Source: Ostreococcus lucimarinus (lineage: Eukaryota). From it: 64,000 nt of DNA. Position numbers and translations under genes: made by a program. Under the pieces are notes generated by a model. It ran no database searches. It saw only the letters and a program-made list of their open reading frames with translations, and was not told the origin of the DNA. Where the stretch lies: NCBI GenBank assembly GCA_000092065.1, contig CP000596.1; one strand, written 5' to 3'. Positions within the stretch are counted from its first letter, which is position 1, and each line of letters starts with the position of its first letter. Shown piece after piece: positions 2,102-60,113 of the stretch.

Positions 2102-4700
2102 ATGCCTCGCGTCATCGAACTCGACGACGATGAAATAATAGATCGTCAATCGAGCGCGGTTTCGGCGTCCACGACGGCGTCCACGCGTCGCGAGACGGTC
2201 GTTTTCGATGAAGATTTCGACGATGAGAGTGACGCCGAACGACCGAACCTTTACGCGATTCTCGGCGTCGACAGCGCGGCGACGACGTCAGAGATCACGC
2301 GCGCGTACAGGTCTATCGCCATTAAACACCATCCCGATCGCCGACGGGGACGAGCGAACCCGACGGGGCAGGATGACGGGGATGAAAAGTTTGTGGAGGC
2401 GCAGGCGGCTTACGAGATTTTAAAAGACGACGCGAAGCGAGAATTTTACGACGCCGGGGGATCGATGGCGGAGATGGTGCGTCGCGCGACGTGATTGTGA
2501 TCATTTTGAGTGACTGACTGATGCGTTTCGGTGCACGTAGGACGTGGACGTGGAGGAGTACGTGGACGCGTTTAGAGCGTTGTTTGAGGAAAGATTCGGC
2601 GGCGAGGACGTCGCGGCGCTGACGAGAGGGATGTCCACGGAGGAGCTCGAGGCGATGCCCCCGTTTCCGTTTCCAAAGTTTTTGTTTCCGAAAGGAACGT
2701 TTCCAGACGGTTTGAGGTTCGACGAGTCGTCGTTCACGGCGCCGCCGAAGGTCAAGGCGTTCGTCGACGAACACGGAGAGGACGCGTTAGCCGCGCTCGC
2801 GAGCGAGTTAGCGGCGAAGGCTGCGAAGAACCGCGGCGCGGGGGGCGAAACACTGACCAGGGGAGGATTGAGCGAGGAAGAAGAGTTGCGCGCGTTCATC
2901 ATGGACGCCATGAAGGATGAGCTTGACGGCTTGCAGTTTCCCGAAGGTGAAGACATGGACGAAGCCATGGCGCGCTTGATGGAGTCGATGCAAGATTTCG
3001 CGGGTGGCATCAATGGTTTAGGACGCGATTACGGCGACATTTCAGACGACGAGGATGGGGAATTCGGCTACGGCTCACCGAGCTACGGCTCGCCGAGCTA
3101 TGGTTCCCCGCGTTTTGGAGGACGGCGTTCGAGTGGCGTCGCGAGCGACGATTCCGAGCGTTCGTACACGCACACGTCTGCATTGGAGGTGCGACGTTGG
3201 TTGGACGCAGCCAAGGCGGGAGATTTGATCACCATGCAAATACTTCATAAAGAACAGCCTTCGTTGGTGCACGAGCGCTCGAGCGGTGTCGGACACACCG
3301 CCGCGCACTGGGCGGCGGCGAAGGGACACGTCGGCGCGTTGACGTGGTTGCTCGACGCGTGCTCGTTTGATCCCAATTTTTCCAACGCATGCGGTGCCAC
3401 GGCGTTACACTCGGCGGCGGCGAATGGTCAGGAAACGTGCGCAGCCCTACTCGTCGCGCGCGGCGCGCGAACAGATAAGGTGGATGAAATTGGCGAGTCG
3501 CCGTGTGATGTCGCCATACGAATGCAGCGAAGCGGCAAACTCATCGACATACTCGGCGGAGACACCGCGAGAACTGGCGTGTTTTGTGGCGTATGCGAAG
3601 AACTGCCGGTCGTACAAGAAGAAGATGAAATCCCAGCCATCGAGCTCGACAAGGATGCACAACGACGTTGGCTCGGCGCAGCCAAGGCGGGAGATTTGGG
3701 TGTCATGCGCACGATTCTCGATGCAGACGAGAACTTACTATACGCGAACGGTGATGGCACAAACTATGGTTTTTCTGGGAACACCGCCATGCACTGGGCT
3801 GCTTCGAAGAACCACGTCGAATGCATTCGTTGGTTGTACGCTCGCGGTATGGATCCGAACGTCATAAACAAGGGCGACAGCACGCCGGCGCACTCAGCGG
3901 CTGGTTCTGGTGCGCTTGAGGCGCTTCGCACTCTTGTGCACGAGTGTGGTGCCGATGTCGATCGCGCAAACGACGTGGACGAGCGACCGATTGATATTGC
4001 GACGCATCGAGGGTACCATGACGTCGTCACTTTGCTGAAAACTGGTGCCGCGCTCGAAACGTTGCGTGAAGAATTTCTTCGCCAAGGTTCGTACACGATC
4101 AAACGCGCCAAAGGTGTCCTGGACTCGTTCGCCGCAAACGATGCCTCGTGTCGTGGACTGGGCGAAAAGTCGGAAATTGTCGCCAAGATTCAGTCGTACG
4201 TGGACGCACTTCCCGTGAGAATTGAACGCAAGTGCGTCGCGCCGAAACCGCAGTTGCGTGGCGCCGTCACCGCGCCCGAACCTGTGGACGAAATCGTCAC
4301 CCGGAAAGCGAGAGATCGCGCGAACGAGCTGCTCGCTGCGCAAGATTTCACGGCCGCCATCGCATCGTACTCTATGGCCATACGACTTGATCGCGCAAAC
4401 GCCGCGCTGTTTTGCGAACGAAGCGCCGCCAACCTCGGCGCGGGCAAGATTGAAGACGCCCTCGCGGATGCCAAAACCGCGGTCAAGCTCGATGCGCGCC
4501 TAGGAATCGCGTACGCAGCACAAGCGGCTGCGCTCAGCGCCGCGAGTCTCCACGCCGAGGCCGTAAAGGTGTGTCGCGCCGGGTTACTTGAAGACGCCGA
4601 GTGCGACGCCTTGCGAACGCAAATCGTCGCGAGCGAGCGCGCCATCGCGGATGATCGCGCGAGGTACGAAAAAATGTGGGGCGACGAAAGAAAGGTTTAG
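2102..4700 (+). CDS. J-domain (DnaJ) - ankyrin-repeat - TPR protein; proposed structure join(2102..2476,2541..4700)
   Basis: Exon 1 has a J-domain with the HPD motif (LYAILGV...YRSIAIKHHPDR...EILKDDAKREFYD). A 64-nt intron GTGCGT...CACGTAG (2477..2540) would put ORF 2544..4700 in frame; the ORF track 'starts' that ORF at GTG, which fits an internal exon. Exon 2 has at least two ankyrin repeats (TAAHWAAAKGHVGALTWLL; GNTAMHWAASKNHVECIRWLYARG) and C-terminal TPR-like helices. Confidence 0.55.
2477..2540 (+). other. Predicted spliceosomal intron (64 nt, GTGCGT...TAG) in the J-domain gene
   Basis: The donor GTGCGT follows a complete Met codon. The acceptor ...CACGTAG restores the frame of the downstream ORF. 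Confidence 0.5.
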
Positions 4701-4736
4701 GGTAATTCAATTCATCAACTATCCCTCAACTATCCA

Positions 4737-5819
4737 GTGAGCTATCATCGACTCATCACCGCTCGACCGCCTGCTCCCGCGCCGTTCGCCCGCGTCGCCG
4801 CAGAGCGCGCCAACCCGATCGCCGCCCTCATGCTCACCGACCCGATGACGTCCAAACCGTCGTCTGTGATGCAGTCGCAGACGCAGATGACGAGGATCGC
4901 CATGTGCGTCGTCGGCGTCGTCGGTTCTCTCATCGTCTACGGCATCTTGCAAGAACGGATCATGACGAGACCGTACGGGGTCGAGAGCGAATACTTCAAA
5001 TACAGCGTCTTCTTAGTGCTGAGTAACCGCGTGCTGAGCGCGTCGCTCGCGGCGGCGATCCTGGCGTACACGAAAGGGATGGTGCAACCGGCGGCGCCGA
5101 TTTGGAAGTATGCGGGGGTGAGCGCGAGCAACGTGCTGGCGACGACGTGCCAATACGAAGCGCTGCGATACGTGTCGTTCCCGGTGCAAACGCTCGGAAA
5201 GTGCGCGAAGATGATACCGGTGATGATTTGGGGATATTTCATCAATCAGCGACGGTATACACTGAACGATTACGTCATAGCGTCGTGCGTCACGCTCGGT
5301 TGTACCATTTTCGCGTTGTACGGCGATTTGACGCACAAGCACAGCGCCAAGAGTTCGAACACCAGCGCGAAAGGATTGATGTTAATGTTAGGCTATCTCG
5401 GTTTCGACGGATTCACGAGCACGTTTCAGGATAAGCTGTTCAAAGGATACCAAATGGAGACGTACAATCAAATGTTGTACGTCAACGGAGTCAGCGCGTG
5501 CCTCTCCGTCGCCTGGCTCTTATCCGACGGCGCGATTTGGCAGGCCCTGGAGTTCATCGCCCGTCACCCCGCGGTGTTATCCGATATCATCACTCTGTCA
5601 TTGAGTTCGATGTTCGGTCAGCTCTGCATCCTGTACACCATCAAAGAGTTCGGCGCGTTGCTCTTCGCCGCCATCATGACGACGCGACAGCTACTCAGCA
5701 TTCTTCTCAGCTGCGTGTTATTCCTCCATCCACTGACGTGGCAGCAATGGTGTGGCACCGCCTTAGTTTTCTCCGCGCTCTACGCCCAGGCGTATTTGAA
5801 GAACGCGCAGCCGCGTTAG
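4737..5819 (+). CDS. UAA-family nucleotide-sugar transporter (SLC35B-like, multi-pass membrane protein)
   Basis: About 10 predicted TM helices. The motif LGKCAKMIPVMIWG is typical of UAA/SLC35B transporters. The true start may be the internal Met near 4830. Confidence 0.6.
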   Translation: MSYHRLITARPPAPAPFARVAAERANPIAALMLTDPMTSKPSSVMQSQTQMTRIAMCVVGVVGSLIVYGILQERIMTRPYGVESEYFKYSVFLVLSNRVLSASLAAAILAYTKGMVQPAAPIWKYAGVSASNVLATTCQYEALRYVSFPVQTLGKCAKMIPVMIWGYFINQRRYTLNDYVIASCVTLGCTIFALYGDLTHKHSAKSSNTSAKGLMLMLGYLGFDGFTSTFQDKLFKGYQMETYNQMLYVNGVSACLSVAWLLSDGAIWQALEFIARHPAVLSDIITLSLSSMFGQLCILYTIKEFGALLFAAIMTTRQLLSILLSCVLFLHPLTWQQWCGTALVFSALYAQAYLKNAQPR

Positions 5820-6427
5820 CCCGTTTCTTTCGCGCGCGCGCGAGCGGCGAGTCACCGATTCAAATCTCCATCCTTCACCGCTTGTCCGAACACCCATATG
5901 TTACATACAATGCTAGTATCAGATTCATACACAATACCGTTTATTCCAACCCATCCAGACCGACCGCGTTATCCGACGACGTCACACGCGCGCGCGTCAT
6001 GACGTCCGCCTCGCACGCGCGATGCGCGCTCAGCGCCCAGCTCACCGCGAGAAGACACGCGAGAGGTGCGTCGATGCGACCGCGACGCGACCGCGACGCG
6101 CGCGCGACGACGGCGACGCGCGCGCGCGGCGAAGACGATGGGATCGTTCGCCGGACGCGCTGGCGGACGCGGGACGGCGACCGCGCGGCGCGCGCGACGC
6201 GCGAGACGGCGACCGCGACCGCGCGGACGCGCGAGACGCGATTCGCGAACGACGCGCGACGCGCGCGCGCGGACCGGACGACGCGCGGACGAGGACGGGC
6301 GAGAGCGGGGAGACGCGAGGGATCGCGAGACGGCGCGAAGACGCGGACGACCCGGACGAAAGCGAGGGGTCGACGAGCGATGCGAGATGACTGACGAATG
6401 ATGCGATGGTCGTTTTGAACGCGCGCA

Positions 6428-7537
6428 GTGTCCACGACGCAAACGGTGGCGATGCCGAGAATGGGGACGAAGACGCGAAGCATCACGGCGCCGGGGGTGA
6501 TCGAGCTCGGGGACGAGAACAACGACGCGGTGGTTTGGAAGAGACTCGGACAAGAAGGCGTCGATAAGGCGGTCGAGTTGTGGAGTTCGGTGAACAGTGA
6601 GGCGGCGGCGGCGGCAAAAGGGGCGTGGGCCGGCGTGAAGCCCGCGCACAAGGTTTTCCTTTCGGATATTTTGGCGAGTCCGAAGCGCAACGCGTTTTTG
6701 AGAAAGTGGATTCCGACGGATATCACGTACGTCAGTTTCATCGGAGTCATGCACCTCGGGTGCCTGCTCGCGCCGTTTACTTTCACCTGGGGAGCGTTCA
6801 AGTGCTTCTTGGCGATGTATTTCATCACTGGTTGCCTCGGTATCACGCTGAGCTATCACAGGCAGATTGCGCACAAGTCGTTCCGCACGCCCAAGTGGCT
6901 CGAGTACGCGCTCGCGTACTGCGGTGCGTTGGCCATGCAAGGTGACCCGTTGGAGTGGGCGTCGAGCCACCGTTACCACCACCAGCACTGCGACACGCCC
7001 AAAGACCCGCACACGCCGTACGAAGGCTTCTGGTGGTCGCACGCCGGATGGTTGTTGGATAACGAGGCGACCATCGAGCGCGTGGGGGATCGCTCGAACG
7101 CCCAAGAGCTCGCGGCGCAGCCGTTCTACCGCTTCATGGAGAAGACGTACATCTGGCATATCGCCGCGTCCGCCGCTGTGTTGTTCGCCCTCGGCGGTTT
7201 GCCGTGGCTCGTTTGGGGTTTCTGCGTGCGCACCGTGTGGGTGTGGCACATCACTTGGGCGGTGAACTCGGTGGCGCACTGCTGGGGTTCGCAAGAGTTC
7301 AACACGGGTGATTTGTCTCGCAACAATTGGCTCATAGGTATCTTGGCGTACGGTGAAGGCTGGCACAACAACCATCACGCCTTCGAATTTAGCGCTCGCC
7401 ACGGATTACGTTGGTGGCAAATTGATATGACTTGGATGGTCATCAGCGTGTTGAAGTTCTTCCGCTTGGCGGATAAGGTGAAACTCCCGAAGGAGGCGCA
7501 GATGGAACGCATGCGTTTCCAGCCAACCCAAGCCTAA
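6428..7537 (+). CDS. Δ9-type acyl-lipid/acyl-CoA fatty-acid desaturase (ADS/FAD5/DesC family)
   Basis: Three His boxes are present: HRQIAH, HRYHHQH and WHNNHHAF. There are four TM segments. It is a single ORF. Confidence 0.8.
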   Translation: MSTTQTVAMPRMGTKTRSITAPGVIELGDENNDAVVWKRLGQEGVDKAVELWSSVNSEAAAAAKGAWAGVKPAHKVFLSDILASPKRNAFLRKWIPTDITYVSFIGVMHLGCLLAPFTFTWGAFKCFLAMYFITGCLGITLSYHRQIAHKSFRTPKWLEYALAYCGALAMQGDPLEWASSHRYHHQHCDTPKDPHTPYEGFWWSHAGWLLDNEATIERVGDRSNAQELAAQPFYRFMEKTYIWHIAASAAVLFALGGLPWLVWGFCVRTVWVWHITWAVNSVAHCWGSQEFNTGDLSRNNWLIGILAYGEGWHNNHHAFEFSARHGLRWWQIDMTWMVISVLKFFRLADKVKLPKEAQMERMRFQPTQA

Positions 7538-8841: not shown

Positions 8842-8947
8842 CGATTCCGACGCCGCGCGCCGTCGCGTCGCGTCGCGTCGCGTCGCCGCGGCGCGCCGGC
8901 GCGCCGGCGCGAAGGCGCGGCGTCGGCACAACTTTACGCGCGAGAAA

Positions 8948-10623
8948 CATGAGCAAGGCCGAGGGACCGGCCATCGGCATCGATTTGGGCACGACGTATT
9001 CATGCGTCGGCGTCTGGCAACACGACAGGTGCGACGCGCGACGCGACGCGACGCCACGGCGACGATCGCATCGCGCGCGGACGGCGCGCGATGGGCGTTT
9101 CGGCGATGCGCGGCGAACGATCGCGGCGCGGGCGCGCGCGATTCGACGCGAACGACGACGGTGACGCGATGGGACGCGAGAAGGAAATATGCGCGAGCGA
9201 ACGGCGGCGCGGGCGCGGGCGACGCGCGGTCGCGCGCGACGGGAGACGCGAGATCGGCGCGCGCCGTCGACACCATCTTTCGAAGCTTCTTGGACGTTCT
9301 CGCGGCTTCGGAGGGCCGTGTGTTGAATTGTATGACGCGGCGAGACGCGCGCGACGTCGGACGTCGGGGGGGGGTCGGGCGATCGCGCGAGGGCGCGCGA
9401 GAGCGCGAGAGCGAAGACTGACGAATGTGTGACGCGTGTGTCTCGTTTGACGCAGGGTGGAGATCATCGCGAACGACCAGGGGGCGCGAACGACGCCGTC
9501 GTACGTGGCGTTTACGGATAGCGAACGCCTGATCGGGGACTCGGCGAAGAATCAAACCGCGATGAACCCGATGAACACGGTTTTCGACGCGAAGCGTTTG
9601 ATTGGACGCAAGTTTTCTGAACCGCAAGTGCAAGCGGACATCAAGGATTGGTCGTTCAAGGTCGAAGCCGGCGAGGCGGACAAGCCGATGATCGTCGTCG
9701 AGTTTCACGGCGAGAAGAAGAAGTTTTCCGCGGAGGAGATTTCTTCCATGGTGCTCGTCAAGATGAAGGAAGTCGCGGAGGCTTACCTCGGTAAGGACAT
9801 TAAGAACGCTGTCGTCACCGTGCCGGCGTACTTCAACGATTCTCAGCGTCAGGCGACCAAGGATGCCGCCGTCATCTCTGGTTTGAACTGCTTGCGCATC
9901 ATCAACGAACCGACCGCCGCGGCGATCGCTTACGGTCTGGACAAGCGCCACGAAGCCAACGGCGCTGAGAAGAACGTTTTGATCTTCGATCTCGGTGGAG
10001 GTACCTTCGATGTGTCTTTGTTGACCATCGAAGAAGGCATCTTCGAAGTCAAGGCGACGGCTGGCGACACGCACTTGGGCGGCGAAGATTTCGACGCTCG
10101 CTTGTTGCAGCACTTCATCGCTGAATTCAAGCGCAAGAACAAGAAGGACATCACGGGCAACCCGAAGGCACTCCGTCGTCTCCGATCTGCTTGCGAACGC
10201 GCCAAGCGTACCTTGTCTTCCACGGCGCAAACGTCCATCGAAATCGATTCCTTGTTCGAAGGCGTCGACTTCTACACTTCCATCACCCGCGCTCGCTTCG
10301 AAGAGCTCTGCATGGATTTGTTCCGCAAGTGCATGGACCCGGTCGAAAAGACGCTTCGCGATGCGAAGATGGACAAGTCGCAAGTTCACGAGGTCGTCCT
10401 CGTCGGCGGATCCACGCGCATCCCCAAGGTGCAACAGCTCTTGTCCGATTTCTTCAACGGCAAGGATTTGTGCAAGTCCATTAACCCCGATGAAGCCGTC
10501 GCCTACGGTGCGGCCGTCCAAGCCGCTATTTTGTCCGGCGAAGGCAACGAAAAGGTGCAAGACTTGCTCTTGCTCGACGTTTCCCCGCTCTCCATGGGTC
10601 TCGAAACCGTCGGCGGCGTGATG

Positions 10624-10655
<32 letters not shown>

Positions 10656-12697: not shown

Positions 12698-13281
12698 AAA
12701 AGCCTGCGTCGCATCCGTGATGGCGACGACCGCGGGCGCACGCCACGAATTCGCCGGCGCCGCGGCCGTTTTGCCGCGCGGCGTCGTCAGTCGCGTCGGC
12801 GCCTCGCTCTCGAAGTACGCCTCGCTCCCTTCATCATCCGACGCGTCGGCGTCGAAGTCGAAATATTTCGGAGCCTCGAATTCCCACCTACGGCGCGTTT
12901 CGCGCGCGACGCGCGTCGTCAGTCATCGTTCGGCGTGGCTGTCGTTGGTCACCGTTTGAAAATCACCGCGGAACAGAAACGGCATCGCGAGCGCGCGAGG
13001 ACGCGCGCGCGATCGAGAAACGAGCTTCGACGCGCGATTTACGACCGGGCACGCACTTGGTCTCGTCTCGCATGTCCGGGACGGGCGTCGTGGTGTGCGG
13101 CGCGGCGCGCGCGAGCGAGCGGGACGCGTCGGCGCGGCGAGACCGCGGCGAAGTCGACGGCGCGTCGGCGAATCGCGCGTTACGAGAGAGCTAATGATTG
13201 TTACTACAACAAAACCGAGCGAGACGCGCGCGCGTCCACGAAACGGCGCGGTGAGGCCGCGACGCCGGGACTCGAAGACGC

Positions 13282-14171
13282 TCACAAGAGTTCCATCTCG
13301 GCTTGCAGCGCCTTGAGTTCGGCTTCTTCGTCCGCGGCGATCGCGGGCGCCGGCACGGACGGCAACGGCACGCTCGGCATCGCGGGTTCTTCCTCCAACT
13401 CCCGGGCGAGCTCGGAATCGAGTAATTTGTCTTCGACGTCCAACGCGTCCAACTCGGCCAACTCCTCCTCCAGCTCGTCCTCGTCCAACTCCGCCGCGAA
13501 CCCCACCGGTTGTCCCAACGCCTCCTGCACCTGCCGCATCTGTTCCGTCTGTTCGCTGATCGCATCCATCGTCGCGTCGACGTCCTCGATCTTCGTCTCC
13601 TTGACCATCCTTCGCATCGCGTCCGCCCCGCTTCGCAGCGCTCCGTACGTCTCGCTCGTCGCCTTCGATCCCTCCAGCATGATCACCTGTTCCTGCAGCT
13701 TCAACTGCGACGTCGCCAGCGCGTCTAACTGCGCTTCGTACAATTTTTTCTTCTTCAGGTGCTGCAGCGCTCGTCGTTTGTTTCCCTGTCGATTCGCCTC
13801 GCGCGCGTTCGCCAGCTCCTCCGCGATCTTTCTCGCCATGAGCGACTCCTTCTTCTCCAGCATCTCGAGCGTCTGTTCGTCGTGCGCGCGCCGCGTCCGT
13901 CAGTCTCCCGCGTCGCGTCGCGAAACCGCGCTCGCCGCTCGCCGCTCGCCGCCGTCGTCGCGCGCGCGTTCGCGCCGCGCGGCGACGCGTTCGCGACGGG
14001 ATCTCGTCGCGAATGCGAACGCGACGACTCGACCGCGCGCGTTCCATCGCGACGCACCGTCTTGATCCTGTCGATGGCGTCCATCGGGCTGTGCGCGCGC
14101 GAGTCCGAGGACGCGTTGGACGCGCTCGTCGTCGGGCTCGCGCGACCGTGGCCGAATAACTTGCGAAACAT
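13282..14171 (-). CDS. SNF7: ESCRT-III subunit Snf7/Vps32/CHMP4, complement(join(13282..13872,14058..14171))
   Basis: Exon 1 MFRKLFGHG...SPMDAIDRIKT matches the Snf7 N-terminus. The donor is GTGCGT and a 185-nt intron spans 13873..14057. The acceptor ...GAACAG is followed by TLEMLEKKESL..., then the Snf7 core and an acidic C-terminus. Confidence 0.75.
13873..14057 (-). other. Snf7 intron (185 nt) containing (CGTCG)/(CGCTCGC) repeats
   Basis: Donor GTGCGT and acceptor CAG on the minus strand. Exon phases are consistent (phase 0). Confidence 0.7.
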
Positions 14172-14281: not shown

Positions 14282-16318
14282 TTACGAATTCATGCTATCC
14301 GCGAGGGCGTCGAAGGCGTTGCGAGCGACGACGGGGGCGGGTTCGGCGAGCTTGGGCGCGGGCGCGGCGCGCTCGCGAGGCGCGGGCGCCGATTTCTCGG
14401 CGGCGGCGGGCTTGTCCTTGGGCGCGGGTGTGTCCTTGGACTTGCCGTCCTTGCCGTCCTTGGGCTCTGGTCTGCCTTTGGCGAAGCGAAATTTGTCGTC
14501 GAGCTCGAGGGAGAGCTTGGTGAGCTCGAGTTCGAGGTCTTTGACGTCGTCGCCGGCGTCCTTGGCGGCTTGAATCTTCTCCTTGAGTTCCTTCTCCTCT
14601 TTGAACTCCTTGCGCTTGACCGCGCCGACGGAGCGCTTGAGATCTTCGGCTTGCCAATCGCGACCGGCTTCCTTGAGCGCCTCTTCGCGCGGGCGAGCGC
14701 CGCCGAAGAGCGAGCTCTTCGCCGCGGCGCCGACGGGGGCGTCGGTGGAACGCTTTTGCAAGTTCAGTTTGGGCCTCGCGGCGCGCTCCTCGGGAGTCGC
14801 TTCGCGGAGTTCTTCCTCTTTGCGCGGGGCGAACGAAGACTTGCGGCCCCATCTGTCGCCATCGGAATCTTTCGGTTCGTCGTATTGCTTGCGCTCGGTA
14901 CGTTCGGGGTTTTCTTCCGAGCGAATCGGAATCGCTTCGCGCGGCTTGTCCTCGACGTACTTGACGTCTACGGGCTTAGCGCCACCGAAGAGCGAGCTTG
15001 AGCCCGCGCTCGCGCTCGTAGGAGCGGCTTCCGAGCGTGGTTTGAGCTGAAGCTTCGGGCGATCGCCTCGCGGAGCGTAACCATCATCCGACGGCGGCTC
15101 GGCGGCGGCGGTGCGAGAACGCAAAGAGCCCCAGTCGCGGTCGCGTTCTTCGCGCGGAGGTCGATCGTCGTATCGCGAATCACGCTCCGGTAACTGTTTT
15201 CTGTCTCTACTCCAGCTGTCGCTTTCATCCGCGCGCGACGGTCCGAGATCCTCACGCGGCGGCCGGTCTGCGAAATCGCCAAATCCCGGTCTGCGCTCCT
15301 CGCGGTCGCCGTAGCGATCGTCGCCGCCGCCGTAACGGTCGCCACCTCTCTCGGCGTAACGGTCGCCAAATCCTGTTGCACGCCTGTCGCCGCCGTAACG
15401 ATCATCTTGCGGCGGCGCGCGACGGTCCGCGCCCCAGTTAGAGCTCGTATCCGCGCGAGAAGGACCTTGCTCTTCGCGAACCTCTCTGTCGCCATATTCA
15501 CCGTCGCGGCGGTCGTCTCGATCGTACCGACCCGGACGACGCTCATCACTGCGATCACCGCCGCCGTAACGATCACCACCGCCGTAACGATCACCACCGC
15601 CGTAACGATCACCGCCTTGGTTGAATCCACCACCGAGACCGACGCCTCCGTCGTCGTCCGGTCGCGAGCTCGGCCCACTCGGCAGCACGACGTCGTCGCC
15701 GCGTCCTCGACCGAACGCCGATCCACCGACTCGTCCCGGAGGCGCGTACGACGACCCACCCGACGCACCCGCGAATTCTGCGAGCGAAAGTTTCACCCCT
15801 TTCGTCTTCTTCTTCGGTTCCTTCACCTTGGCCGCCGCCCCGAGCGACGGAAACGCTCCGCTCGCGTCCGCTTCCGCCGCCTCCCCGCCGAGCGACGGGA
15901 ACGCCTGCGCCGGCACCGCTAACGATTCCACTCCATCGTTTCCTTCCTTCGTCTGCGTGAATCGCGAAAGCGCGCGTCGTTCCGTCAGTGCGCGCTCGTT
16001 TTCGTCGAGTTTAGCTTTTAAAAATCGAGCCCACGTCCGAGCCGCGATCTCCGCGCGAACCGTCTCGACCGCGCCGCGCCCTCGATCGCGCGCCTCGTCG
16101 CCCCGGCGTCTCGCGAACGATGCGCGCGCAATTTCTCCATCATCTCGCGCGCGAATCGCGCGCGCGCGCGCGTCGCGCGCGTCGCGGGCGACGCGCACGC
16201 GTCGCCCCACGGCGCCGCCATCGGTCGGGCGTCGTTCGATGCATTTCGCGCCGCCGACGCGCGCGCGACGCGTCGCGCGCGTCCGCGACGCGCGACGCGC
16301 GTCGTGAGGATTTTTCAA
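14282..16318 (-). CDS. Plant-type translation initiation factor eIF4B-like protein with DRYG repeats; 5' end unresolved
   Basis: AFPSLGG...KKKTKGVKLSLAEF parallels the plant eIF4B N-terminal motif. The centre has RDRYGGGDRYGGGDRYGGGDR (DRYG domain). There is a K/E-rich C-terminus. The only in-frame ATG is at 16318 and the first ~90 codons look non-coding, so there may be an upstream exon. Confidence 0.5.
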   Translation of the reverse strand: MKNPHDARRASRTRATRRARVGGAKCIERRPTDGGAVGRRVRVARDARDARARAIRARDDGEIARASFARRRGDEARDRGRGAVETVRAEIAARTWARFLKAKLDENERALTERRALSRFTQTKEGNDGVESLAVPAQAFPSLGGEAAEADASGAFPSLGAAAKVKEPKKKTKGVKLSLAEFAGASGGSSYAPPGRVGGSAFGRGRGDDVVLPSGPSSRPDDDGGVGLGGGFNQGGDRYGGGDRYGGGDRYGGGDRSDERRPGRYDRDDRRDGEYGDREVREEQGPSRADTSSNWGADRRAPPQDDRYGGDRRATGFGDRYAERGGDRYGGGDDRYGDREERRPGFGDFADRPPREDLGPSRADESDSWSRDRKQLPERDSRYDDRPPREERDRDWGSLRSRTAAAEPPSDDGYAPRGDRPKLQLKPRSEAAPTSASAGSSSLFGGAKPVDVKYVEDKPREAIPIRSEENPERTERKQYDEPKDSDGDRWGRKSSFAPRKEEELREATPEERAARPKLNLQKRSTDAPVGAAAKSSLFGGARPREEALKEAGRDWQAEDLKRSVGAVKRKEFKEEKELKEKIQAAKDAGDDVKDLELELTKLSLELDDKFRFAKGRPEPKDGKDGKSKDTPAPKDKPAAAEKSAPAPRERAAPAPKLAEPAPVVARNAFDALADSMNS

Positions 16319-16533
16319 TCGCGCGCTACGATCGTACCTGTGCGCTCCACGCGCTGGTCGTGCCCCAAGCCATGTTTCGTTGTGCGGGACGATCGGCGCT
16401 GGGTCTTTACGCCGATGCCGGGCCGAAGGAGAGGCGCGGCGGCGAGGCGAGGCGAGGCACGCGAACCGATGTCAAATGAAGGTTTATTATGACAACTGAT
16501 TATGAAAGATGGATGCGTGATGCGCGTGCGCGT

Positions 16534-27737: not shown

Positions 27738-28710
27738 TTACGTCTCGTCCGCGGTCAAGTTGGCGTTCTTGTAGTTGACGGCGTATTCGCGAATGTTGCC
27801 GACGATGAAAAACGCGCCGCAGATGCGCACGGTGCGCGCGAAACCACCCTTGTATAACGCGCGAATACCGCCCGTTTTGTACGTTTCAGACAGAGCGTGC
27901 GTGGCGGAGGTGAATTTGGAGCCGCTCAAATCGCTCTGCATGAGCGTCTTCGACGTGTCGATCGGGTGCGTGAGGCCCGCGGCGAAGGTGCCCGCGAGCG
28001 ACGCGCCCAGGACGCTCGAGGCGAAATCGCCCAAATTCGGTTGCGCTTCCTTGATCTTGTTCGTCAGCACCGGTCCGAGACCGAGGTATCCCGCGGTGTA
28101 GATGCTCTCGCGCGCCGCGCACGACACCGTCCCTCGCCACATCTTCGCGAGACCTCCTTGTTTCACGACGGCGGCCACCGTCCCCCCCGGACCGAGGCCC
28201 ATCTTTTGCTGTTGAATCACCGTCAAATCCACCGGCGAGTACAGCGCGCTCGACACCGCCCCCGCCGCCATGGCGCATCCAATTTGCTCCGCGTCGCTCA
28301 TTCCTCGCTCACCGTTCGTGATGACGCGCTCGATCGCCCCATTCACCGCCACCTGCGCCGCGGTGATGGGCGCCAGCGACGCCGCGTTCGCGAAGACGCC
28401 GCGGTACCATCCCGCGATCGACCGCGGCAGCGCTCTCGAGTCCTGCACGCAGATCTTAAACGTGATCAGCGGCACTGCGCGCGATTCGATCGCGGTCCCG
28501 TCAGTCTCCGCGCCGTCGTCGTCATCCGTCACATCGCGCGACCGCCGTTATCCATTACATTAATCACATCGCGTCACTCGACCATCATCGCGCGTCTCGC
28601 GCCGTCGCCTCGCCTCGATCGTCGCACGCACTCTGCACGCACGTCTCCACGATCCCCCCGAACGCGCCCACGGCGAGATTCTCCGCGTCCGACAGCGGGA
28701 CGCGCGCCAT
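27738..28710 (-). CDS. Mitochondrial carrier family (SLC25) protein, complement(join(27738..28474,28632..28710))
   Basis: Three carrier signatures: PLITFKICVQ, SPVDLTVIQQQ and HPIDTSKTLMQ. Exon 1 MARVPLSDAENLAVGAFGGIVETCVQ ends at donor A|GTGCGTG. The intron spans 28475..28631. The acceptor GCGCGCAG|TG completes an ATG codon. The ORF track's 'start' at 28532 is a GTG inside exon 2. Confidence 0.6.
28475..28631 (-). other. Predicted intron (157 nt) of the mitochondrial carrier gene
   Basis: Donor GTGCGTG and acceptor CGCGCAG. The splice restores the G-x-x-G...P-x-[DE]-x-x-K-x-x-Q spacing of carrier repeat 1. Confidence 0.55.
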
Positions 28711-37379: not shown

Positions 37380-37815
37380 CTCACGGCGGTTGGACGTGTC
37401 GATGGTCTTACCAGCCTGTGGTTATCTCGCGAATCGTTCGCGTCAGTCAGTCCTCGGCTCGCGCTCGAAAAGATCTTCCCCAGGGTGTCCCGCGCGGGAC
37501 TGATCTTGACCATATCCAGGGCGCCCGCGTCGCCGCGCGAGCCCTTCGCGGCGGTCTCGTGCAAATACGCGAGGCGGCACGAAACCTTCGCGCCGTGCGC
37601 GCGCGCGTGAGCGACGCTGACACCGCGATCGCGCGCGCGCGTCGCACGAATTCCGCTCGACGCGTCGAGTGGATAAAGAGCGCGCGAGAGACCAGACGAC
37701 GCGCGCCGCGCACCTTGACGACGAGACCGCGGCGCTGCGACTTGGCGGGCTTAGTCGCCGTGAGCGCGCGGGGGGCGGTGATCTTGGACGACAGGGCGAA
37801 CATAGCGATGACGAG

Positions 37816-37870
37816 GGTGGGAGAGTGCGGCTCCAGGGACGAGGTGGGAGAGTGCGGCTCCAGGGACGAG
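37816..37870. repeat. Perfect 27/28-bp tandem duplication (GGTGGGAGAGTGCGGCTCCAGGGACGAG ×2)
   Basis: Read directly from the sequence. It lies between the CTNNBL1 3' end and the K/A-rich ORF. Confidence 0.8.
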
Positions 37871-53411: not shown

Positions 53412-53880
53412 ATGGACTCTCCCGCGCGCGCGAACGCGTACGGGAACACCGGGATGGAGACCGAAGTGAGACAGTTAAAGGTACGGCGCGAACGCGACGC
53501 GACGCGACGCGACGCGACGCGACACGACGACGACGATCGCGACGAAGACGTCGAAATCAAAATCGAAATCAAATCGCGCACTGACGCCGAAACATCGCCG
53601 ACTCGCGTCCGCGCAGGATCATCAACAAACGCGCGAAGAGTTGCTCAATCGCGTGCACGCGCTGAAGACAGAACTTCAGGATTGGCGGTATAAGATGGAT
53701 AATCAGGTGAAGAATTACAAGGGCGAGTTGGCGAGTCTCAAGGAGACGTTGTCGAGCGAAGTGCAAGCGCTGAGGAAAGAATTAGAAGAGACGAGCGATC
53801 GGTTGAAGCGGTCGATCGTGAGCACAAGTAGCGTGAGTACCGGACATTCACCGGGATTGCATCGATTACCGCCGCCGTGA
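53412..53880 (+). CDS. Small coiled-coil protein (~110 aa), two exons join(53412..53480,53617..53880); function unknown
   Basis: Exon 1 MDSPARANAYGNTGMETEVRQLK ends at donor GTACGG. The 136-nt intron contains (GACGC)5. The acceptor CCGCGCAG is followed by DHQQTREELLNRVHALKTELQDWRYKMDNQVKNYKGELASLK.... Confidence 0.45.
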
Positions 53881-54321: not shown

Positions 54322-54344
54322 CATCACAACGCGACTCGCTCCAC

Positions 54345-54920
54345 ATGATATCACTCACGTGCAAGCATCACAAACCGCACTCGCAACAATCGCAACGCCA
54401 CCGACGCTCGAAAAGCCATCGATCGCGCACTTCGCGGGCGTCGTCGTCCACCCCTGGACCGACGCCCCACAGCGACGCAACGTCTTCCGGCGAGCACTTC
54501 GGCGCGTTGAGTCACGACGAACGCGTCAGCATCTTGGGCGAAGCCATCATCGATTCTGGCGCGCTCGTGTTCACGAAGAGTCACAGTGGAAGGTACACGT
54601 GCGTTGACAATGCGTTTCTCAAAGCGTTTGGGTTCGAAAAGTCCGAAGATGTCGTCGGACTCACCGACGACGAGGTGATCGAGAAGATTCTTGCGAGCGG
54701 GAAAACATTTCACCACTCGTACCGAGGCGAGTCGGTGACCGATCTTCCGCGAATTTGGAAAGAGAACGACGATCTCGTGCAGCACAACAACCGAACGATG
54801 TGGTTCAAGGAGCGCGCGTTGTTGAGCGGTGGCGAAGACACCAAGCTTCACGAATTTGTCGTGATGAAATCGCCCTTCGCGGGTGGAGTCCTCGGCGTCG
54901 CGGTGCCCGCTGGAATTTGA
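54345..54920 (+). CDS. Small PAS-domain-like protein with a His/Ser/Arg-rich N-terminal linker
   Basis: ...ERVSILGEAIIDSGALVFTKSHSGRYTCVDNAFLKAFGFEKSEDVVGLTDDEVI... resembles a PAS fold. It starts 24 bp after the roadblock ORF stop, in a different frame. Confidence 0.4.
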   Translation: MISLTCKHHKPHSQQSQRHRRSKSHRSRTSRASSSTPGPTPHSDATSSGEHFGALSHDERVSILGEAIIDSGALVFTKSHSGRYTCVDNAFLKAFGFEKSEDVVGLTDDEVIEKILASGKTFHHSYRGESVTDLPRIWKENDDLVQHNNRTMWFKERALLSGGEDTKLHEFVVMKSPFAGGVLGVAVPAGI

Positions 54921-54942
54921 TAGACGACGCGCCGCCGATCTC

Positions 54943-55026
54943 GATCAAGACCACAATGACTTAGACCAAGACCACGATGATTTAGACCAAGACCACAATG
55001 ACTTAGACCAAGACCACGATGATTTA
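54943..55026. repeat. Tandem 21-bp repeat ×4 (two alternating variants GA[T/C]CAAGACCAC[A/G]ATGA[C/T]TTA) just downstream of the PAS ORF
   Basis: Read directly from the sequence. If translated it would encode DLDQDH(N/D)D repeats. Confidence 0.8.
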
Positions 55027-55219
55027 GCGTTCTTCGATGCGCGCGCGCTCTTGTTAGAATTACTTTCTTTACCTAATCTATTGTTTCATCACGCGCTTCT
55101 TCCCGTCCCGCGTTTCGACTAACGCGAAATGGGAAATAACCAAAGTTTTATCGCTCGCATAAGGATCGACGGGTCTTCCCTGTGTCTCCACCGCTGTCCT
55201 GGCGACTGTCGCCAACAAT

Positions 55220-55801
55220 CTAGTCCCCGCGAATCGCGCGCACGCTCGCCTCAAGCGCGTACAACTCTTCGTCTTCGATACCTAACCCCCGCAAAGCCTC
55301 GCACAGGTTGTATAAATATTCGGAATTTTCTCCAGACGGACCGCGCGCTGCAGCGATTTGCTCGGCTACATCGCTCGCGTCTCCGAGCCAGTTCAAGTTA
55401 GTCGTCGCCGGCGTCGCGATATACGTTACCGCGTTTCTTATCACCGGCACCGCGTTCGCGTCATCGACGTCGTATAAATCCATCTCAATCCTCTCGTCGT
55501 ACTGTTTTTCTCGTATTTCCAGGTTCTCCAGCACCGCCTCTCGGTCCTCTGCGCGAACTTCGTACGCGACGCCCCAGCACGCGACGTCCTCCGAGCAACG
55601 CTCTAACGTCGCCGTGCGCCCGGGCGCCGCGGGCGTTCCTCGATGGTCGGTGCTTCCTTGATAAAACCGTCGCCGAAACCCTCGCGCGCACACGGGCGCG
55701 ATCGAGCGCGCGTACTCGAAGCCCGTGCGCCACACTATCGAACCGTATCCGAAGACCCATAACGATTCGTTCGCGCGCGTCGACAGCGGCGCGCGAGGCA
55801 T
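55220..55801 (-). CDS. CHAC: ChaC-type glutathione-specific γ-glutamylcyclotransferase
   Basis: MPRAPLSTRANESLWVFGYGSIVWRTGFEY...FYQGSTDHRGTPAAPGRTATL...WGVAYEV matches ChaC/GGCT. This is the C-terminal 193 codons of ORF 55220..56905. The upstream part of that ORF is antisense to RpiA. Confidence 0.75.
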   Translation of the reverse strand: MPRAPLSTRANESLWVFGYGSIVWRTGFEYARSIAPVCARGFRRRFYQGSTDHRGTPAAPGRTATLERCSEDVACWGVAYEVRAEDREAVLENLEIREKQYDERIEMDLYDVDDANAVPVIRNAVTYIATPATTNLNWLGDASDVAEQIAAARGPSGENSEYLYNLCEALRGLGIEDEELYALEASVRAIRGD

Positions 55802-55961
55802 GATGCCCACGTCGTGGTCTCGCGGCACGCGTTTCGCGCTCGAGCTCGCGCTGGCGACAGATCGGGCGCGATGCGCGTTCGACGCGCGCATCGCGAGCGA
55901 AGAAGCGAGGCGAACACTGGCGCGGCAGACGACGACGCGTCGACGCTCGGCCACGCTCGCG

Positions 55962-56978
55962 ATGGCGCGCGCGACGGCGACGGCGCGCGCGACGGCGACG
56001 CGGAACGGCGCGCCGCGCGTCGTCGCGCGCGCGCGAGCGACGGCGCGCGCGGGCGCGGTGACGCGGCGCGCGAACGACGCTCGGGCGGCGAGGGCGGCGA
56101 CGCTGAGGACGCGCGCGCGACGCGAGCGAACGCGCGCGCGCGCGAGCGACGCGCGCGTGGATGAATCCGACGATAGCTTCGCGTCCGCGAGCCTGTCGGC
56201 GGCGATCGCGCAGCGGGCGCTGATGATGATCGAATCCAACGCCGTCGTGGGGTTGTCGCGGGGCGAACACGCGAGCGAGCTGGCGCGACGGTTGGCGGAG
56301 GCGCTGGAAAGCGGTGCGCTGGAGAACGTGAAAGTGGTGGCGCTCGAACCGTTGGCGGCGAAGGAATGCGCGGTGAACGGGCTAGAGATGCGATCGATCG
56401 ATGAGGTGCGAGCGATCGACGTGACGTTCGCGCAGCCGAGCGAGTGCGCGGTGGTGGTGACGAACGGGCAGAAATCCATCGCGAGCGTGTTCGGACGAGA
56501 GACGACGCCGGTACAACCAGATATCGAACGCGCGAAGGCGGCAATGAAAAAGAGCGTCAAGGTGGTGCTGTTGAAGGAGCTTTTCGTGGATAAGATTGGC
56601 GGGTCCATCCCCATCGTTGTCGAGGCGGAAAATTGGGAAGAACACGCGGAGGAGTTGGATGATTTATTTTTGGGCGACGCCGAGGTGTGGAGGCGAGGTG
56701 CGACGTTTGACGCGAACCCAAGAGGAGGGAAGAACCCGTACGTCAGCGCCGACGGCTCGCACACGCTGTTAGACTTGCGATTTGAAGATCCCATCAACAG
56801 CGGTCGCTGGGAGTGCGGTTTGATGCTCGACGGCAAACCGTGCGGGCCGTACGAGTTACAATACGCGTTGGAAAACGATGTCGAAGGCGTGTTGGCGCAT
56901 GGCATCTACACCCAAGCCGATGTCGTGATAACGTTGAATCCGGACACGTTAGAAGCGGTGACGATCGAACGCGATTAA
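55962..56978 (+). CDS. RPI: Ribose-5-phosphate isomerase A-like protein with a plastid-type presequence
   Basis: The RpiA-like core (SNAVVGLSRGEHASE...IDVTFAQPSE...ELFVDKIGGSIPIVVEA...PYVSADGSHTLLDLRF) is present. The start is placed at the Met at 55962. An alternative ATG at 55800 would overlap the ChaC ATG by one base on the opposite strand. Confidence 0.55.
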   Translation: MARATATARATATRNGAPRVVARARATARAGAVTRRANDARAARAATLRTRARRERTRARASDARVDESDDSFASASLSAAIAQRALMMIESNAVVGLSRGEHASELARRLAEALESGALENVKVVALEPLAAKECAVNGLEMRSIDEVRAIDVTFAQPSECAVVVTNGQKSIASVFGRETTPVQPDIERAKAAMKKSVKVVLLKELFVDKIGGSIPIVVEAENWEEHAEELDDLFLGDAEVWRRGATFDANPRGGKNPYVSADGSHTLLDLRFEDPINSGRWECGLMLDGKPCGPYELQYALENDVEGVLAHGIYTQADVVITLNPDTLEAVTIERD

Positions 56979-57076
56979 CGCTTTAGACACTAGACGCCGA
57001 ATAATTTGACTGCATTCATTCATCAAATCGCTATTACTAAGCTAGCTAACGCAACGCATTTTCATCGATGCGCTGT

Positions 57077-59338
57077 TCAATCTCTCGCCAATACCTCGTC
57101 GCAATACGTCGAGAACATCTGAGTCTCCGCAAACGCTCGCATGAACGATCTGTCTTGGCCTTGAAACGTGGCGAGGAACGAATCCTTGAGCAAAATTGTC
57201 ACCTTTCCTTCGCCTCCTTCGTTCACGTCTGTGATGGAATGATAACGTATGCTCGCGACGAGCGAGTTTAAATACGCACGCCACGCGTTGAGGAACTCGC
57301 GCGCCGCGTTGATCGCCTCTTGAGACGGGTCGATGACTGGTCGCTTCTTGTGATTGACGGACGCCTCCACGATGGCTTCGTGAAGGGGGTGAAGATTGCG
57401 CACGAGATCCTTCATTCTCGGCAAACGCAACGGCTTACCCTCCCACTGTACCTTTACGTCGTCTTTGTACACGTTGATTCGAGTCAGATGATTCGTTCTG
57501 TTACGCAAATCGCTCGTTTTGTGCTGAACGCCGCACACAAACGGCACCGGCGCGTCGAGAAAATCAACCATGTGTTGCGGCAAGATTGGCAGAAAGAGCG
57601 ACTGCCACCCGAATGGACGAAGCATTGGAATGAGCGCAAGAGAAACAGCGCTCAACTCGCCCAAGTTGTTACTAAACACCACGACTTGCTTTTCGAGCAA
57701 GACCGCGGTGAGAAGAGAGATGACATTTTCCAAACTCAAACTGCAGCACAAGCTCACGACGGCCCATCCCTGAAGGTGAAATGCTTCTTCGGCTGGAGAT
57801 ATTCGCGCACTCTCCGGTAAGCCGACGATATTCGTATCTAACTGCGATGAAGCGCGCTCGGAAGGCACCGGTCGTCGAAATCGAATCGGTTTCACGCCGA
57901 CGCTCGGAACGAACTCGCCGCTCGCGTCGCCCAAATCCGGGACGCGACACTGACTGTAATTTTCTAAAATTTTCATCGCTTCGTTCCCATCGCTTGATGA
58001 CGGTGGTGATCGCACCCACTGGTCGCCATCGTTTCCTTCGTCGTCTGGCATCAAGTCGTGCATGTTCTGTTTGATTCGTTCGACCCGTTCCATGCCCAGG
58101 ACGTGCGACAACACCTCGTAGTGCGTTTCAAAAAACGGCACCTTGCTCAAGATACAGTAACATCGCGGCGCGACTTCGATGTAGCGATGCTTCAAAGGTC
58201 GCGCCTCTCGTGAAGGCGAATCTTTCGCGCCGTACGCATCCACCGCCGGCGCTCCCCGAAGATGCTGCACGATGGGCGGCGGTTGATGTAAGACTTCTGT
58301 GACGTACGCGCACACTCCGTACATGGGCGTGTTGTCGCTGGTTTGGACTTGAAAAACGAAAACCTGATCGTCGCCGTCGGTGTACGTCGTGCCGCACATG
58401 ATTTCTTGCAACTTGCTCATACTCGGCGTGCGTTCGAGCAAACGCGGCTCGACGCCGTGCGGGAAACAAAACGCCGCCACTTCGTCCACGGCGAAATTCG
58501 GCGACGCTTCGCCGCCAGGATAATGAAACAACACCGATGCTTTGTACGTTTCCCCAGCTGTACCTCGATACGCGCGCAGTTTGCGCGGATCGGTGATGGC
58601 GACGTCATCTGCCACACCGCTCGATCGCGCCTCTCGCGCCGCCGAAGCCGAGTCCGCCACCACGCGCACCTCCGCGCTCGGCTCCAATCCGCACACTAAA
58701 AACGCCTCCATCGTTTTCAACTTTTCCGGCACCCCACTCGCGGGCGTTCCCGACACACTCAACTTCCCCATCACGTCTAAATCTGCGCTCGAGCTCGCCG
58801 CGCGCTGGTCGCGCAACCACCGCCGTTTCTCCGCGGTCAGCTGTTCGGGATTGAACCACGCCGCGTGCGTGACGAACGCGTCGGGCGTCGTGTCGACGAA
58901 CTCGTCCTCGTCCTCGTCCTCGTCCGAGGACGACGAGCAAGCCGTACTCATCGCCGTCGGCGTCGCGCGCGACGCGTCGTCCATCACTAAATCATCGCTC
59001 GAACGGTCGCTCGTCGTCGCGTCCGCCTCGCCTCGCGCCGCGGTTCCCGAAAACGTCCGGTGCAGCGCATCGGCGAACCATCCCCCTCGACGCCACGTTG
59101 ATCCTGATTCTGCGTCCGCGGGCGCGCTCTGCGCCCGCGCGAGTCTGCCTTCGACGTCGTCGCTCGTGATTTCTCGCGGCGCATCCTTTGCGTCGAGAGA
59201 CGAGCTCGAGCGGTGATGATTGGCGACTATTTGTATGCCATCGACGACGAGCACGCCGCCCGTCGCGCGCGCGCGCGCGGCGTTCGCGTCGAACGCGTCG
59301 CGCGCGTCGTCCGCGTCGCCGGACGCGGGCCGCGGCAT
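57077..59338 (-). CDS. DENN-domain protein (uDENN-DENN-dDENN; putative Rab GEF, SCD1/DENND-like)
   Basis: uDENN reads FVFQVQTSDNTPMYGVCAYV. The DENN core reads YCILSKVPFFETHYEVL and AVVSLCCSLSLENVISLLTAVLLEKQVVVFSNNLGELSAVSLALIPMLRPFGWQSLFLPILP. A dDENN-like C-terminus is present. Confidence 0.7.
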   Translation of the reverse strand: MPRPASGDADDARDAFDANAARARATGGVLVVDGIQIVANHHRSSSSLDAKDAPREITSDDVEGRLARAQSAPADAESGSTWRRGGWFADALHRTFSGTAARGEADATTSDRSSDDLVMDDASRATPTAMSTACSSSSDEDEDEDEFVDTTPDAFVTHAAWFNPEQLTAEKRRWLRDQRAASSSADLDVMGKLSVSGTPASGVPEKLKTMEAFLVCGLEPSAEVRVVADSASAAREARSSGVADDVAITDPRKLRAYRGTAGETYKASVLFHYPGGEASPNFAVDEVAAFCFPHGVEPRLLERTPSMSKLQEIMCGTTYTDGDDQVFVFQVQTSDNTPMYGVCAYVTEVLHQPPPIVQHLRGAPAVDAYGAKDSPSREARPLKHRYIEVAPRCYCILSKVPFFETHYEVLSHVLGMERVERIKQNMHDLMPDDEGNDGDQWVRSPPSSSDGNEAMKILENYSQCRVPDLGDASGEFVPSVGVKPIRFRRPVPSERASSQLDTNIVGLPESARISPAEEAFHLQGWAVVSLCCSLSLENVISLLTAVLLEKQVVVFSNNLGELSAVSLALIPMLRPFGWQSLFLPILPQHMVDFLDAPVPFVCGVQHKTSDLRNRTNHLTRINVYKDDVKVQWEGKPLRLPRMKDLVRNLHPLHEAIVEASVNHKKRPVIDPSQEAINAAREFLNAWRAYLNSLVASIRYHSITDVNEGGEGKVTILLKDSFLATFQGQDRSFMRAFAETQMFSTYCDEVLARD

Positions 59339-59487
59339 CGCGCGCGTCCGCGAGTGACGCCGAACGCGAACGCGCGTCGGACATTCGTCGCGGCGACGCG
59401 CGAGGTGACGCGCGCGCGCGCGCGCTCAAACTTTAAATTTTTTCATTCGTATTTCATGTCAACGCGCGTCGCGATGCGGGCGAGAAA

Positions 59488-60113
59488 TCACGCGCTCGCG
59501 TCCGCGGACGGCGCGGCGTCCTTGGCGACGCCCGTGGAACCGAATCCGCCGGCGCCGCGCGCCGTGTCGTCCAAGTCGTCGCATTCGACGACTTCCGGCG
59601 TGAGAATTTGTTCGAGGATCAACTGCGCCACGCGATCGCCCTTCTTCACCTCGAAGTCTTCGTCGCCGTGGTTGAACAAAATCACCCCGACGTTGCCGCG
59701 GTAGTCGTAATCCACCACCCCCGCGCCGACGTCGATGAACTTTTTCCACGCCAAGCCCGATCGCGGGGCGACGCGCGCGTACGTCCCGAGCGGAATCGCG
59801 ATCGACAGGTCTGTCTTCACCAATTCTTTCCCACGCGCCGGCACGACGCAATCGTGCGCGCTGCGACATTCGCGATCGCGTCGTCTCGTCAGTCGCCGAA
59901 AATTCAAATTTCCCTCACCCTTCGCGCGCGCGCGCGTCGGCGTTCCCTTCGTCGCTCGTCCAACGACGCGGGCGGCCTTTCGCCCGCGCGAGACGCGGGA
60001 AAAATCGCGCTTTCGCACCTCGCCAGATCGTATCCCGCCGCGCCTTCGCTCCCTCGCGTCGGCATCGTCGCGTCGTCGCTCAGTCGCTTCACGCGCAGCG
60101 CCGCGGACGCCAT
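59488..60113 (-). CDS. DUT: dUTP pyrophosphatase (dUTPase), complement(join(59488..59860,60019..60113))
   Basis: Exon 1 [31 protein letters not shown] ends in phase 2 at donor AG|GTGCGA. The 158-nt intron spans 59861..60018. The acceptor TGTCGCAG|C gives ...[18 protein letters not shown]... with dUTPase motifs 2-5 ([32 protein letters not shown]). Confidence 0.85.
59861..60018 (-). other. dUTPase intron (158 nt)
   Basis: Donor GTGCGAAAGC and acceptor ...AATGTCGCAG. Splicing produces the YDL(A)S(A)xD spacing conserved in dUTPases. Confidence 0.75.

Follow-up and report, generated by a model that had tools for sequence, protein, structure and literature searches.

The question raised by this locus is whether the long, repeat-dense first intron of the cytosolic HSP70 gene of Ostreococcus lucimarinus carries an inserted mobile element or is an ordinary spliceosomal intron. 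The gene lies in a stretch of 64 kb of nuclear DNA of strain CCE9901 (contig CP000596.1, referred to below as the window), whose GC content of 61.9% places it in the GC-rich bulk genome and not in the half of chromosome 2 that is low in GC and dense in introns. Uninterrupted reading frames of the window encode proteins identical to RefSeq entries of this mamiellophycean picoalga on a chromosome of 428,333 bp, XP_001421922.1 being one of them. A first-pass annotation made from the letters of the sequence had placed six introns here, all with a strongly constrained donor, had singled out the HSP70 intron as an outlier in length and had proposed an introner-like element inside it. Ten introns are now recognized in the window. 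With a probability of about 0.9, all ten belong to the canonical U2-type spliceosomal introns that are usual in the bulk genome, which is GC-rich and poor in introns, and the one in HSP70 is an old intron of this kind, present in a single copy.

The HSP70 intron occupies a site that is shared with related lineages. It was found in 16 contigs of three other Ostreococcus-like lineages, syntenic with the window (the methylase, HSP70, TPX2-like and SNF7 genes stand in identical order), where it follows the same 80-nucleotide (nt) first exon and lies in the same phase. Its length is 427–429 nt in O. lucimarinus and 429, 631–634 and 628–638 nt in the others, all three of which have the donor GTACG. 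A transcript from the MMETSP collection (P0049), from a congener that belongs to one of these lineages, reads WQHDR/VEII across the junction (here and below a slash marks the splice site). The comparison indicates that the intron held this position before at least four Ostreococcus-like lineages diverged, and it is short in none of them. Within O. lucimarinus itself, neither presence/absence nor large length polymorphism of the intron was seen in 15 contigs of this type, four of which cover it in part. In ten such contigs and the window the intron measures 427–429 nt and differs by a handful of single-nucleotide polymorphisms, and four further Joint Genome Institute (JGI) metagenome contigs are collinear through the intron or through the portion of it that they reach.

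The six introns located initially are all real, and for five of them both ends had been placed correctly; the HSP70 intron starts at 9029 instead of 9028 and is 427 nt long instead of 428. Rechecking these six upheld their donors (GTGCG, and GTACG once, in the intron at 53481), their acceptors (CAG, with TAG at 2540 only) and the short first exons attributed to the HSP70, coiled-coil and carrier genes (80, 69 and 79 nt). Four more introns, with their first exons, were obtained by scanning both strands for a GT(G/A)(C/A)G donor, a CTGAC branch and a YAG acceptor, guided by a codon-usage map of the coding segments. Every intron-bearing gene has one intron, and the first exons range from 17 to 375 nt (Table 1).

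Removal of the introns from transcripts is supported for eight of the ten by exact junctions in intron-less contigs or RefSeq models. Once spliced at the six sites known at the outset, the genes for the DnaJ-ankyrin, SNF7 and small coiled-coil proteins, the mitochondrial carrier, dUTPase and cytosolic HSP70 have open frames. RefSeq contains identical proteins for the spliced HSP70 (650 aa, XP_001421920.1), carrier (271 aa, XP_001422053.1), dUTPase (155 aa, XP_001422063.1) and TPX2-like gene (467 aa, XP_001422046.1). The SNF7 junction, ATCAAGACG/ACGCTCGAG, is exact in three intron-less contigs (L007–L009), from which the 185 nt are precisely gone and in which the spliced protein is encoded. The spliced coiled-coil protein (110 aa) was found in eight contigs, and its junction is identical in XP_001421929.1, a model that merely begins at a later Met. 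In the acyl-lipid desaturase gene the intron separates a 67-nt transit-peptide exon from the desaturase body; the spliced protein (391 aa) is exact in 26 contigs, and the junction recurs in five contigs that lack the intron and stem from separate runs. The spliced 141-aa lysine/alanine-rich protein has an exact match in the protein collection, with its junction in four intron-less contigs (L036–L039).

The other two introns are supported in a different manner, since exact look-up returned no match for the spliced DnaJ-ankyrin (844 aa) and eIF4B-like (568 aa) proteins. The DnaJ-ankyrin junction is read contiguously in the orthologous proteins P0193, P0196 and P0199 (...GGSMEEM/DVNVDEYVDAFRALF, in another lineage), and the genomic open reading frame (ORF) P0194 of O. 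lucimarinus enters the intron and then stops. For the plant-type eIF4B gene no spliced contig was found on searching, and the intron is kept in L007–L009. The spliced protein matches the Pfam family PF06273 from its residue 2, which pairs with position 4 of the profile, so that the N-terminus of the family has its homolog in the 12 residues of the first exon.

The donor had been described as far more constrained than a generic GTRAGT, and this holds for the enlarged set. GTGCG is used in eight introns and GTACG in two, so all ten conform to GT(G/A)CG, whereas GCG follows only 3.8% of the GT dinucleotides of the window and RCG 6.5%. The two following positions are looser (T at +6 in only five of the ten donors, G at +7 in two). 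An ACTGAC branch site occurs in every intron, with the branch A placed 23–34 nt from the 3' end, and six of the ten have the full GACTGACG motif. The window contains 23 ACTGAC hexamers on both strands, and 11 of these fall on the sense strand of the ten introns, where 0.42 would be expected for introns that make up 3.7% of the sequence. The acceptor is CAG in eight cases and TAG in two, and is extended to CGCAG in six. Other ACTGAC sites (5733, 12790, 20438, 30245, 50607 and others) were rejected as introns, either for their position within well-supported coding sequence or for want of a suitable donor or acceptor. Further introns in the coiled-coil gene were likewise discarded: its ORF stops at 53880, and the one that follows belongs to a separate Roadblock/LC7-like gene.

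Table 1. Introns, (GCGAC)n runs and heat-shock-element-like site of the window (lengths in nt; a slash separates exon from intron).
Feature	Position	Strand	Length	Phase	First exon	Donor	Branch motif	Acceptor	Remarks
DnaJ-ankyrin gene intron	2477-2540	+	64	0	375	ATG/GTGCGTC	TGACTGACT, 2514-2518	TAG	
Acyl-lipid desaturase gene intron	6066-6428	+	363	1	67	GAG/GTGCGTC	TGACTGACG, 6391-6395	CAG	
HSP70 gene, first intron	9029-9455	+	427	2	80 (8949-9028)	CAG/GTGCGAC	AGACTGACG, 9418-9422	CAG	
(GCGAC)n run	9037-9054	+	18						Directly after the HSP70 donor, whose heptamer GTGCGAC includes the repeat unit
Heat-shock-element-like site	9282-9299	+							GAAGCTTCTTGGACGTTC; four alternating GAA/TTC units with one mismatch; motif match
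TPX2-like gene intron	12888-13056	-	169	2	17	CAA/GTGCGTG	TGACTGACG, 12918-12922	TAG	
SNF7/CHMP4 gene intron	13873-14057	-	185	0	114	ACG/GTGCGTC	AGACTGACG, 13899-13903	CAG	
(GCGAC)n run	13909-13922	-	14						Inside the SNF7 intron
Plant-type eIF4B gene intron	15953-16337	-	385	0	36	CAG/GTACGAT	GCACTGACG, 15984-15988	CAG	
Mitochondrial carrier gene intron	28475-28631	-	157	1	79	AGA/GTGCGTG	AGACTGACG, 28500-28504	CAG	
Small lysine/alanine-rich protein gene intron	37416-37713	-	298	0	90	AAG/GTGCGCG	GGACTGACTGACG, 37442-37450	CAG	
Coiled-coil gene intron	53481-53616	+	136	0	69	AAG/GTACGGC	GCACTGACG, 53581-53585	CAG	
(GCGAC)n run	53492-53523	+	32						Inside the coiled-coil intron
dUTPase gene intron	59861-60018	-	158	2	95	GAG/GTGCGAA	CGACTGACG, 59888-59892	CAG	

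Neither the length nor the repeat content of the HSP70 intron sets it apart, contrary to what the six initial introns had suggested. The introns of 169, 298, 363 and 385 nt bridge the gap, leaving that of HSP70 as just the longest of ten (genome-wide, intron length averages 188 nt with a maximum of 1773 nt; PMC2367439), and the other long introns are equally rich in GC-rich tandem repeats, the interior of the desaturase intron being dense in low-complexity sequence. Four of the six introns had also been said to carry (GCGAC)n. Exact tandems of at least two copies are present in three of them (HSP70, SNF7 and coiled-coil), and a fourth is reached with looser criteria; among the ten introns the desaturase intron brings the number with exact tandems to four. 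The runs are found at 1.7 per kb in introns, 1.2 per kb in intergenic DNA and 0.27 per kb in coding sequence, one intergenic example being a 26-nt array that lies 63 nt before the HSP70 ATG, and the arrays detected with Tandem Repeats Finder cover intergenic spacers also. With a similar frequency outside genes, (GCGAC)n is therefore a property of non-coding DNA and not a mark of introns.

In three introns the (GCGAC)n run begins 8–15 nt past the donor. On the sense strands of the ten introns GCGAC occurs 42 times and GTCGC 14 times, counts that are not independent owing to the tandem arrays, and the composition is poor in T (12.7%) and rich in G (39%). The HSP70 intron of the lineage represented by contig L030 is G+T-rich instead, so the T-poor skew is not universal. 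Selection or a mutation bias tied to the strict splice code might lie behind both the shortage of T and excess of purines on the sense strand and the repeats next to the donor.

The most probable account of these data is that the introns surviving in this lineage keep a near-invariant (A)G/GTGCG(T) donor, a (G)ACTGAC(G) branch site 20–35 nt before the acceptor and a (CG)CAG acceptor, usually as the sole intron of a gene and near its 5' end. The sequence between these fixed signals is unconstrained and fast-evolving, mostly GC-rich low-complexity or microsatellite DNA like that of the intergenic spacers, and so its length drifts, from 64 to 427 nt here. Changes in length would arise by slippage-type expansion and contraction and not by insertion of mobile elements; gain and loss of low-complexity GC-rich repeats is suggested by the fact that such repeats fill the long introns and the spacers alike.

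The opposite explanation, that the HSP70 intron became long through the insertion of a mobile introner-like or transposable element, or was created by one, as in Micromonas, starts from its being the longest of the ten and repeat-dense, and from the existence of introner elements in that sister genus (PMC3879977, PMC4540971). In addition, its best BLASTN match in the window is another intron, that of the desaturase gene (70% identity over 252 nt, 59.9 bits). This self-alignment, which had been proposed as a check of the insertion, does not support it: the score lies within the range given by dinucleotide shuffles of the HSP70 query (mean 45.6, standard deviation 6.1, maximum 62.6 bits). In pairwise comparisons of the introns only the HSP70–coiled-coil and SNF7–coiled-coil pairs, which share the microsatellite, rise above the shuffles, and no family resemblance beyond shared microsatellite or low complexity was found among the ten introns or across the window. 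The core 25-mer TTTCGAAGCTTCTTGGACGTTCTCG of the HSP70 intron was recovered from four JGI metagenome contigs, all of them at the HSP70 locus. The intron has no convincing terminal inverted repeats, showing short imperfect GC-rich ones in its interior only, and target-site duplications were not specifically sought. The site is, moreover, common to four lineages at equal or greater length, and the 15 contigs are free of presence/absence or large length differences. This negative result accords with the main texts of introner surveys (including PMC4540971), where introners are described in Micromonas and none is named in Ostreococcus; in the portion available of the survey supplement PMC9860276, Ostreococcus appears only among the metagenome-assembled genomes screened. 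Taken together, an element inserted in, or giving rise to, the HSP70 intron is highly improbable.

Several points weigh against the ordinary, single-copy nature proposed here for these introns. The search for copies covered 64 kb of a 13-Mb genome and orthologous contigs, so that diverged copies elsewhere would escape it, and the metagenome test consisted of one exact 25-mer that returned only four contigs. Slippage is deduced from composition, and 11 O. lucimarinus-type sequences differ by only 0–2 nt in the length of the HSP70 intron. The RNA origin of the intron-less contigs is likewise inferred. Finally, the eIF4B-like and TPX2-like introns are kept in L007, from which the SNF7 intron is gone; in view of this retention, the splicing of the former two rests on gene model and protein homology.

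This last contig also bears on another possibility, namely that some intron-less contigs (L007–L009 for SNF7, for instance) are genomic DNA of natural strains devoid of the intron, and hence record a presence/absence polymorphism. L007 (from the Logan assembly of SRR28369057) is 5.3 kb long, aligns to window positions 16302–10827 and spans three genes and the 3' end of the convergent HSP70 gene; it lacks the SNF7 intron exactly, yet it has both the TPX2-like intron and the covered part of the eIF4B-like intron. L036, with 9.6 kb and genes on both strands, is likewise without the intron at 37416–37713. However, multi-gene contigs built from overlapping transcripts are expected in so compact a genome, the intron-less contigs of two different genes come from one and the same project (SRR28369xxx), several unrelated runs show identical precise junctions, and the metagenome contigs L027 and L028 have the SNF7 intron. 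The pattern in L007 suggests an RNA-derived assembly whose introns were spliced with unequal efficiency, an intron-less SNF7 allele being less likely, and polymorphism is an improbable explanation for these contigs as a whole.

It could also be that the HSP70 intron has been kept long by regulatory DNA, a candidate heat-shock element (HSE) for the single heat-shock factor (HSF), located downstream of the transcription start. The site at 9282–9299, GAAGCTTCTTGGACGTTC, agrees with the definition of an HSE as at least three contiguous alternating nGAAn/nTTCn units, and is the only four-unit site with at most one mismatch in the 64 kb, where 0.23 would be expected by chance (roughly 0.0015 per 427 nt). 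It falls in the lower-GC, T-containing core of the intron (GC down to 0.53), a feature that this explanation would account for, and no HSE-like site is present in the spacer of roughly 350 nt that separates the HSP70 ATG from the divergent gene upstream. Two of the lineages, those with introns of about 630 nt (L020 and L033), have an equally good four-unit site upstream of the gene, at -296 and -282, showing that such sites do accompany HSP70, and in the lineage of L030 (429-nt intron) a weak three-unit site with one mismatch stands at a similar position in the intron. The intron is at least 427 nt long in all four lineages, and O. lucimarinus has one Hsf gene (PMC6563006).

Nevertheless, the evidence in O. 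lucimarinus is a lone motif match made after the intron had been inspected, three-unit sites with one mismatch such as that of L030 occur at chance frequency, and the HSP70 introns cannot be aligned between lineages, so that no conservation of the site is demonstrable. The other three long introns of the window (298–385 nt) need no explanation of this kind. An intronic HSE in HSP70 is thus a tentative candidate, and regulatory DNA as the reason for the length of the intron seems doubtful. It is a little more doubtful still that the HSE moved in O. lucimarinus from the promoter, its place in two sister lineages, into the first intron; if that were true, the conserved and unusually long 5' intron of HSP70 would serve as a downstream regulatory module.

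The failure of the HSP70 introns to align between lineages is as expected of unconstrained spacer: apart from the splice signals, no conserved internal blocks were detected between the O. lucimarinus intron and those of the other lineages (z ≤ 1.7). The interior was also considered as a possible host of a small nucleolar RNA (snoRNA), as U14 snoRNA resides in hsc70 introns of vertebrates. Neither this nor any other known RNA was found by an Rfam search, in which nothing reached the gathering score across the window and the interval 8900–9500 gave chance-level matches only (E > 4).

A closer inspection of the longer HSP70 introns, in L020 (positions 2069–2700) and L033, showed a CGACTGACG/TGACTGACA motif about 260 nt upstream of the acceptor, followed by a T-rich extension of about 235 nt with imperfect inverted repeats of the GGATGGAC/GTCCATCC type and a pyrimidine-rich 3' end. 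This extension may be an insertion between an old branch site and the acceptor, confined to those lineages and not present in the window. Regarding the DnaJ-ankyrin gene, the ortholog P0196, encoded on a 9.4-kb contig of another lineage, has an uninterrupted ORF across the junction. Unless this contig stems from RNA, that lineage may lack the 64-nt intron, which would then have been gained or lost in a lineage-specific manner.

The practical value of the analysis lies in annotation, as short 5' exons escape ORF callers and sometimes the reference annotation. The expectation that ORF-only calling drops such exons was confirmed, although it is a trivial consequence for this genome: public prokaryote-style calls give 623 aa for HSP70 against 650 after splicing, 264 against 271 for the carrier, 139 or 111 against 155 for dUTPase and 98–99 against 141 for the small lysine/alanine-rich protein. 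In this last case the reference annotation is itself truncated, with 98 aa in XP_001422054.1 (37080–37803, minus strand) compared with 141 aa on the intron-less contigs. The combination of donor, ACTGAC and a YAG 23–34 nt away is specific enough to recover short 5' exons, and it gave the four additional introns described here.

Elsewhere in the window, whose proteins recur in hundreds of marine metagenome contigs, two other reference models seem truncated: that of RNase Z, XP_001422051.1 (22652–24997, minus strand), with 447 aa against an uninterrupted ORF of 781 aa, and that of PHYLLO, XP_001421925.1 (30750–36989, plus strand), a 259-aa partial model against an ORF of 2079 aa. The eIF4B-like coding sequence contains a tandem repeat of 18-nt period that encodes GGDRYG (15552–15613, minus strand), of which contig L007 has one unit fewer than the window. 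Contigs L036–L039 appear to carry about 28 nt more than the window at 37838–37847 (minus strand), upstream of the 141-aa gene, a difference read from overlapping BLAST pieces which suggests a possible tandem-duplication polymorphism in the 5' region of this gene.

The splice signals observed here, real and strong as their constraint is, were already published for O. lucimarinus in 2008. Irimia and Roy (PLoS Genetics, PMC2483917) described for 319 introns outside chromosome 2, confirmed by expressed sequence tags, an "atypical consensus GTGCGTG", ACTGAC in 87% and GACTGACG in 66.5%, a preference for CGCAG and a branch-to-AG distance of about 20–35 bp. The ten introns are from the same species and share the donor, branch, acceptor and distance, nothing of substance being different; in this small sample the pentamer is kept more strictly than the GTGCGTG heptamer, and two of the ten donors are GTACG. 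The same authors treat these signals as a pattern of intron-poor genomes, which converge on a strong donor and branch consensus. In the literature the strict GTGCG/ACTGAC code of Ostreococcus already stands as a textbook example of such signal tightening, and its presence here has little significance beyond housekeeping.

Verhelst et al. (2013, PMC3879977) describe the canonical introns of Micromonas as singletons with an AG/GTGCGT donor, an NCTGAC branch and a 5' bias within genes, and those of the window resemble these canonical introns of Micromonas and other Mamiellophyceae in donor, branch motif, singleton sequence and 5' bias, but have the branch site 23–34 nt from the acceptor and not 43–52 nt as in Micromonas. 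The introner elements IE-A to IE-D of that related genus (Worden 2009, Verhelst 2013, Simmons 2015) are likewise functional spliceosomal introns of GC-rich regions, and IE-C has the GACTGACG branch motif found in the window (PMC3879977). They form, however, multi-copy families with a conserved interior, inserted at novel, non-orthologous positions with a bias to the centre of genes and with presence/absence polymorphism, whereas the window introns are singletons at the 5' end and the HSP70 intron is orthologous across lineages. A more distant parallel is provided by the hemiascomycete yeasts, which are generally known (see also PMC2483917, PMC2367439) as intron-poor, with near-invariant donor and branch sequences, 5' introns and an enrichment in highly expressed genes; they differ in base composition and in the signals themselves, which are GTATGT and TACTAAC in the yeasts and GTGCGT and ACTGAC here.

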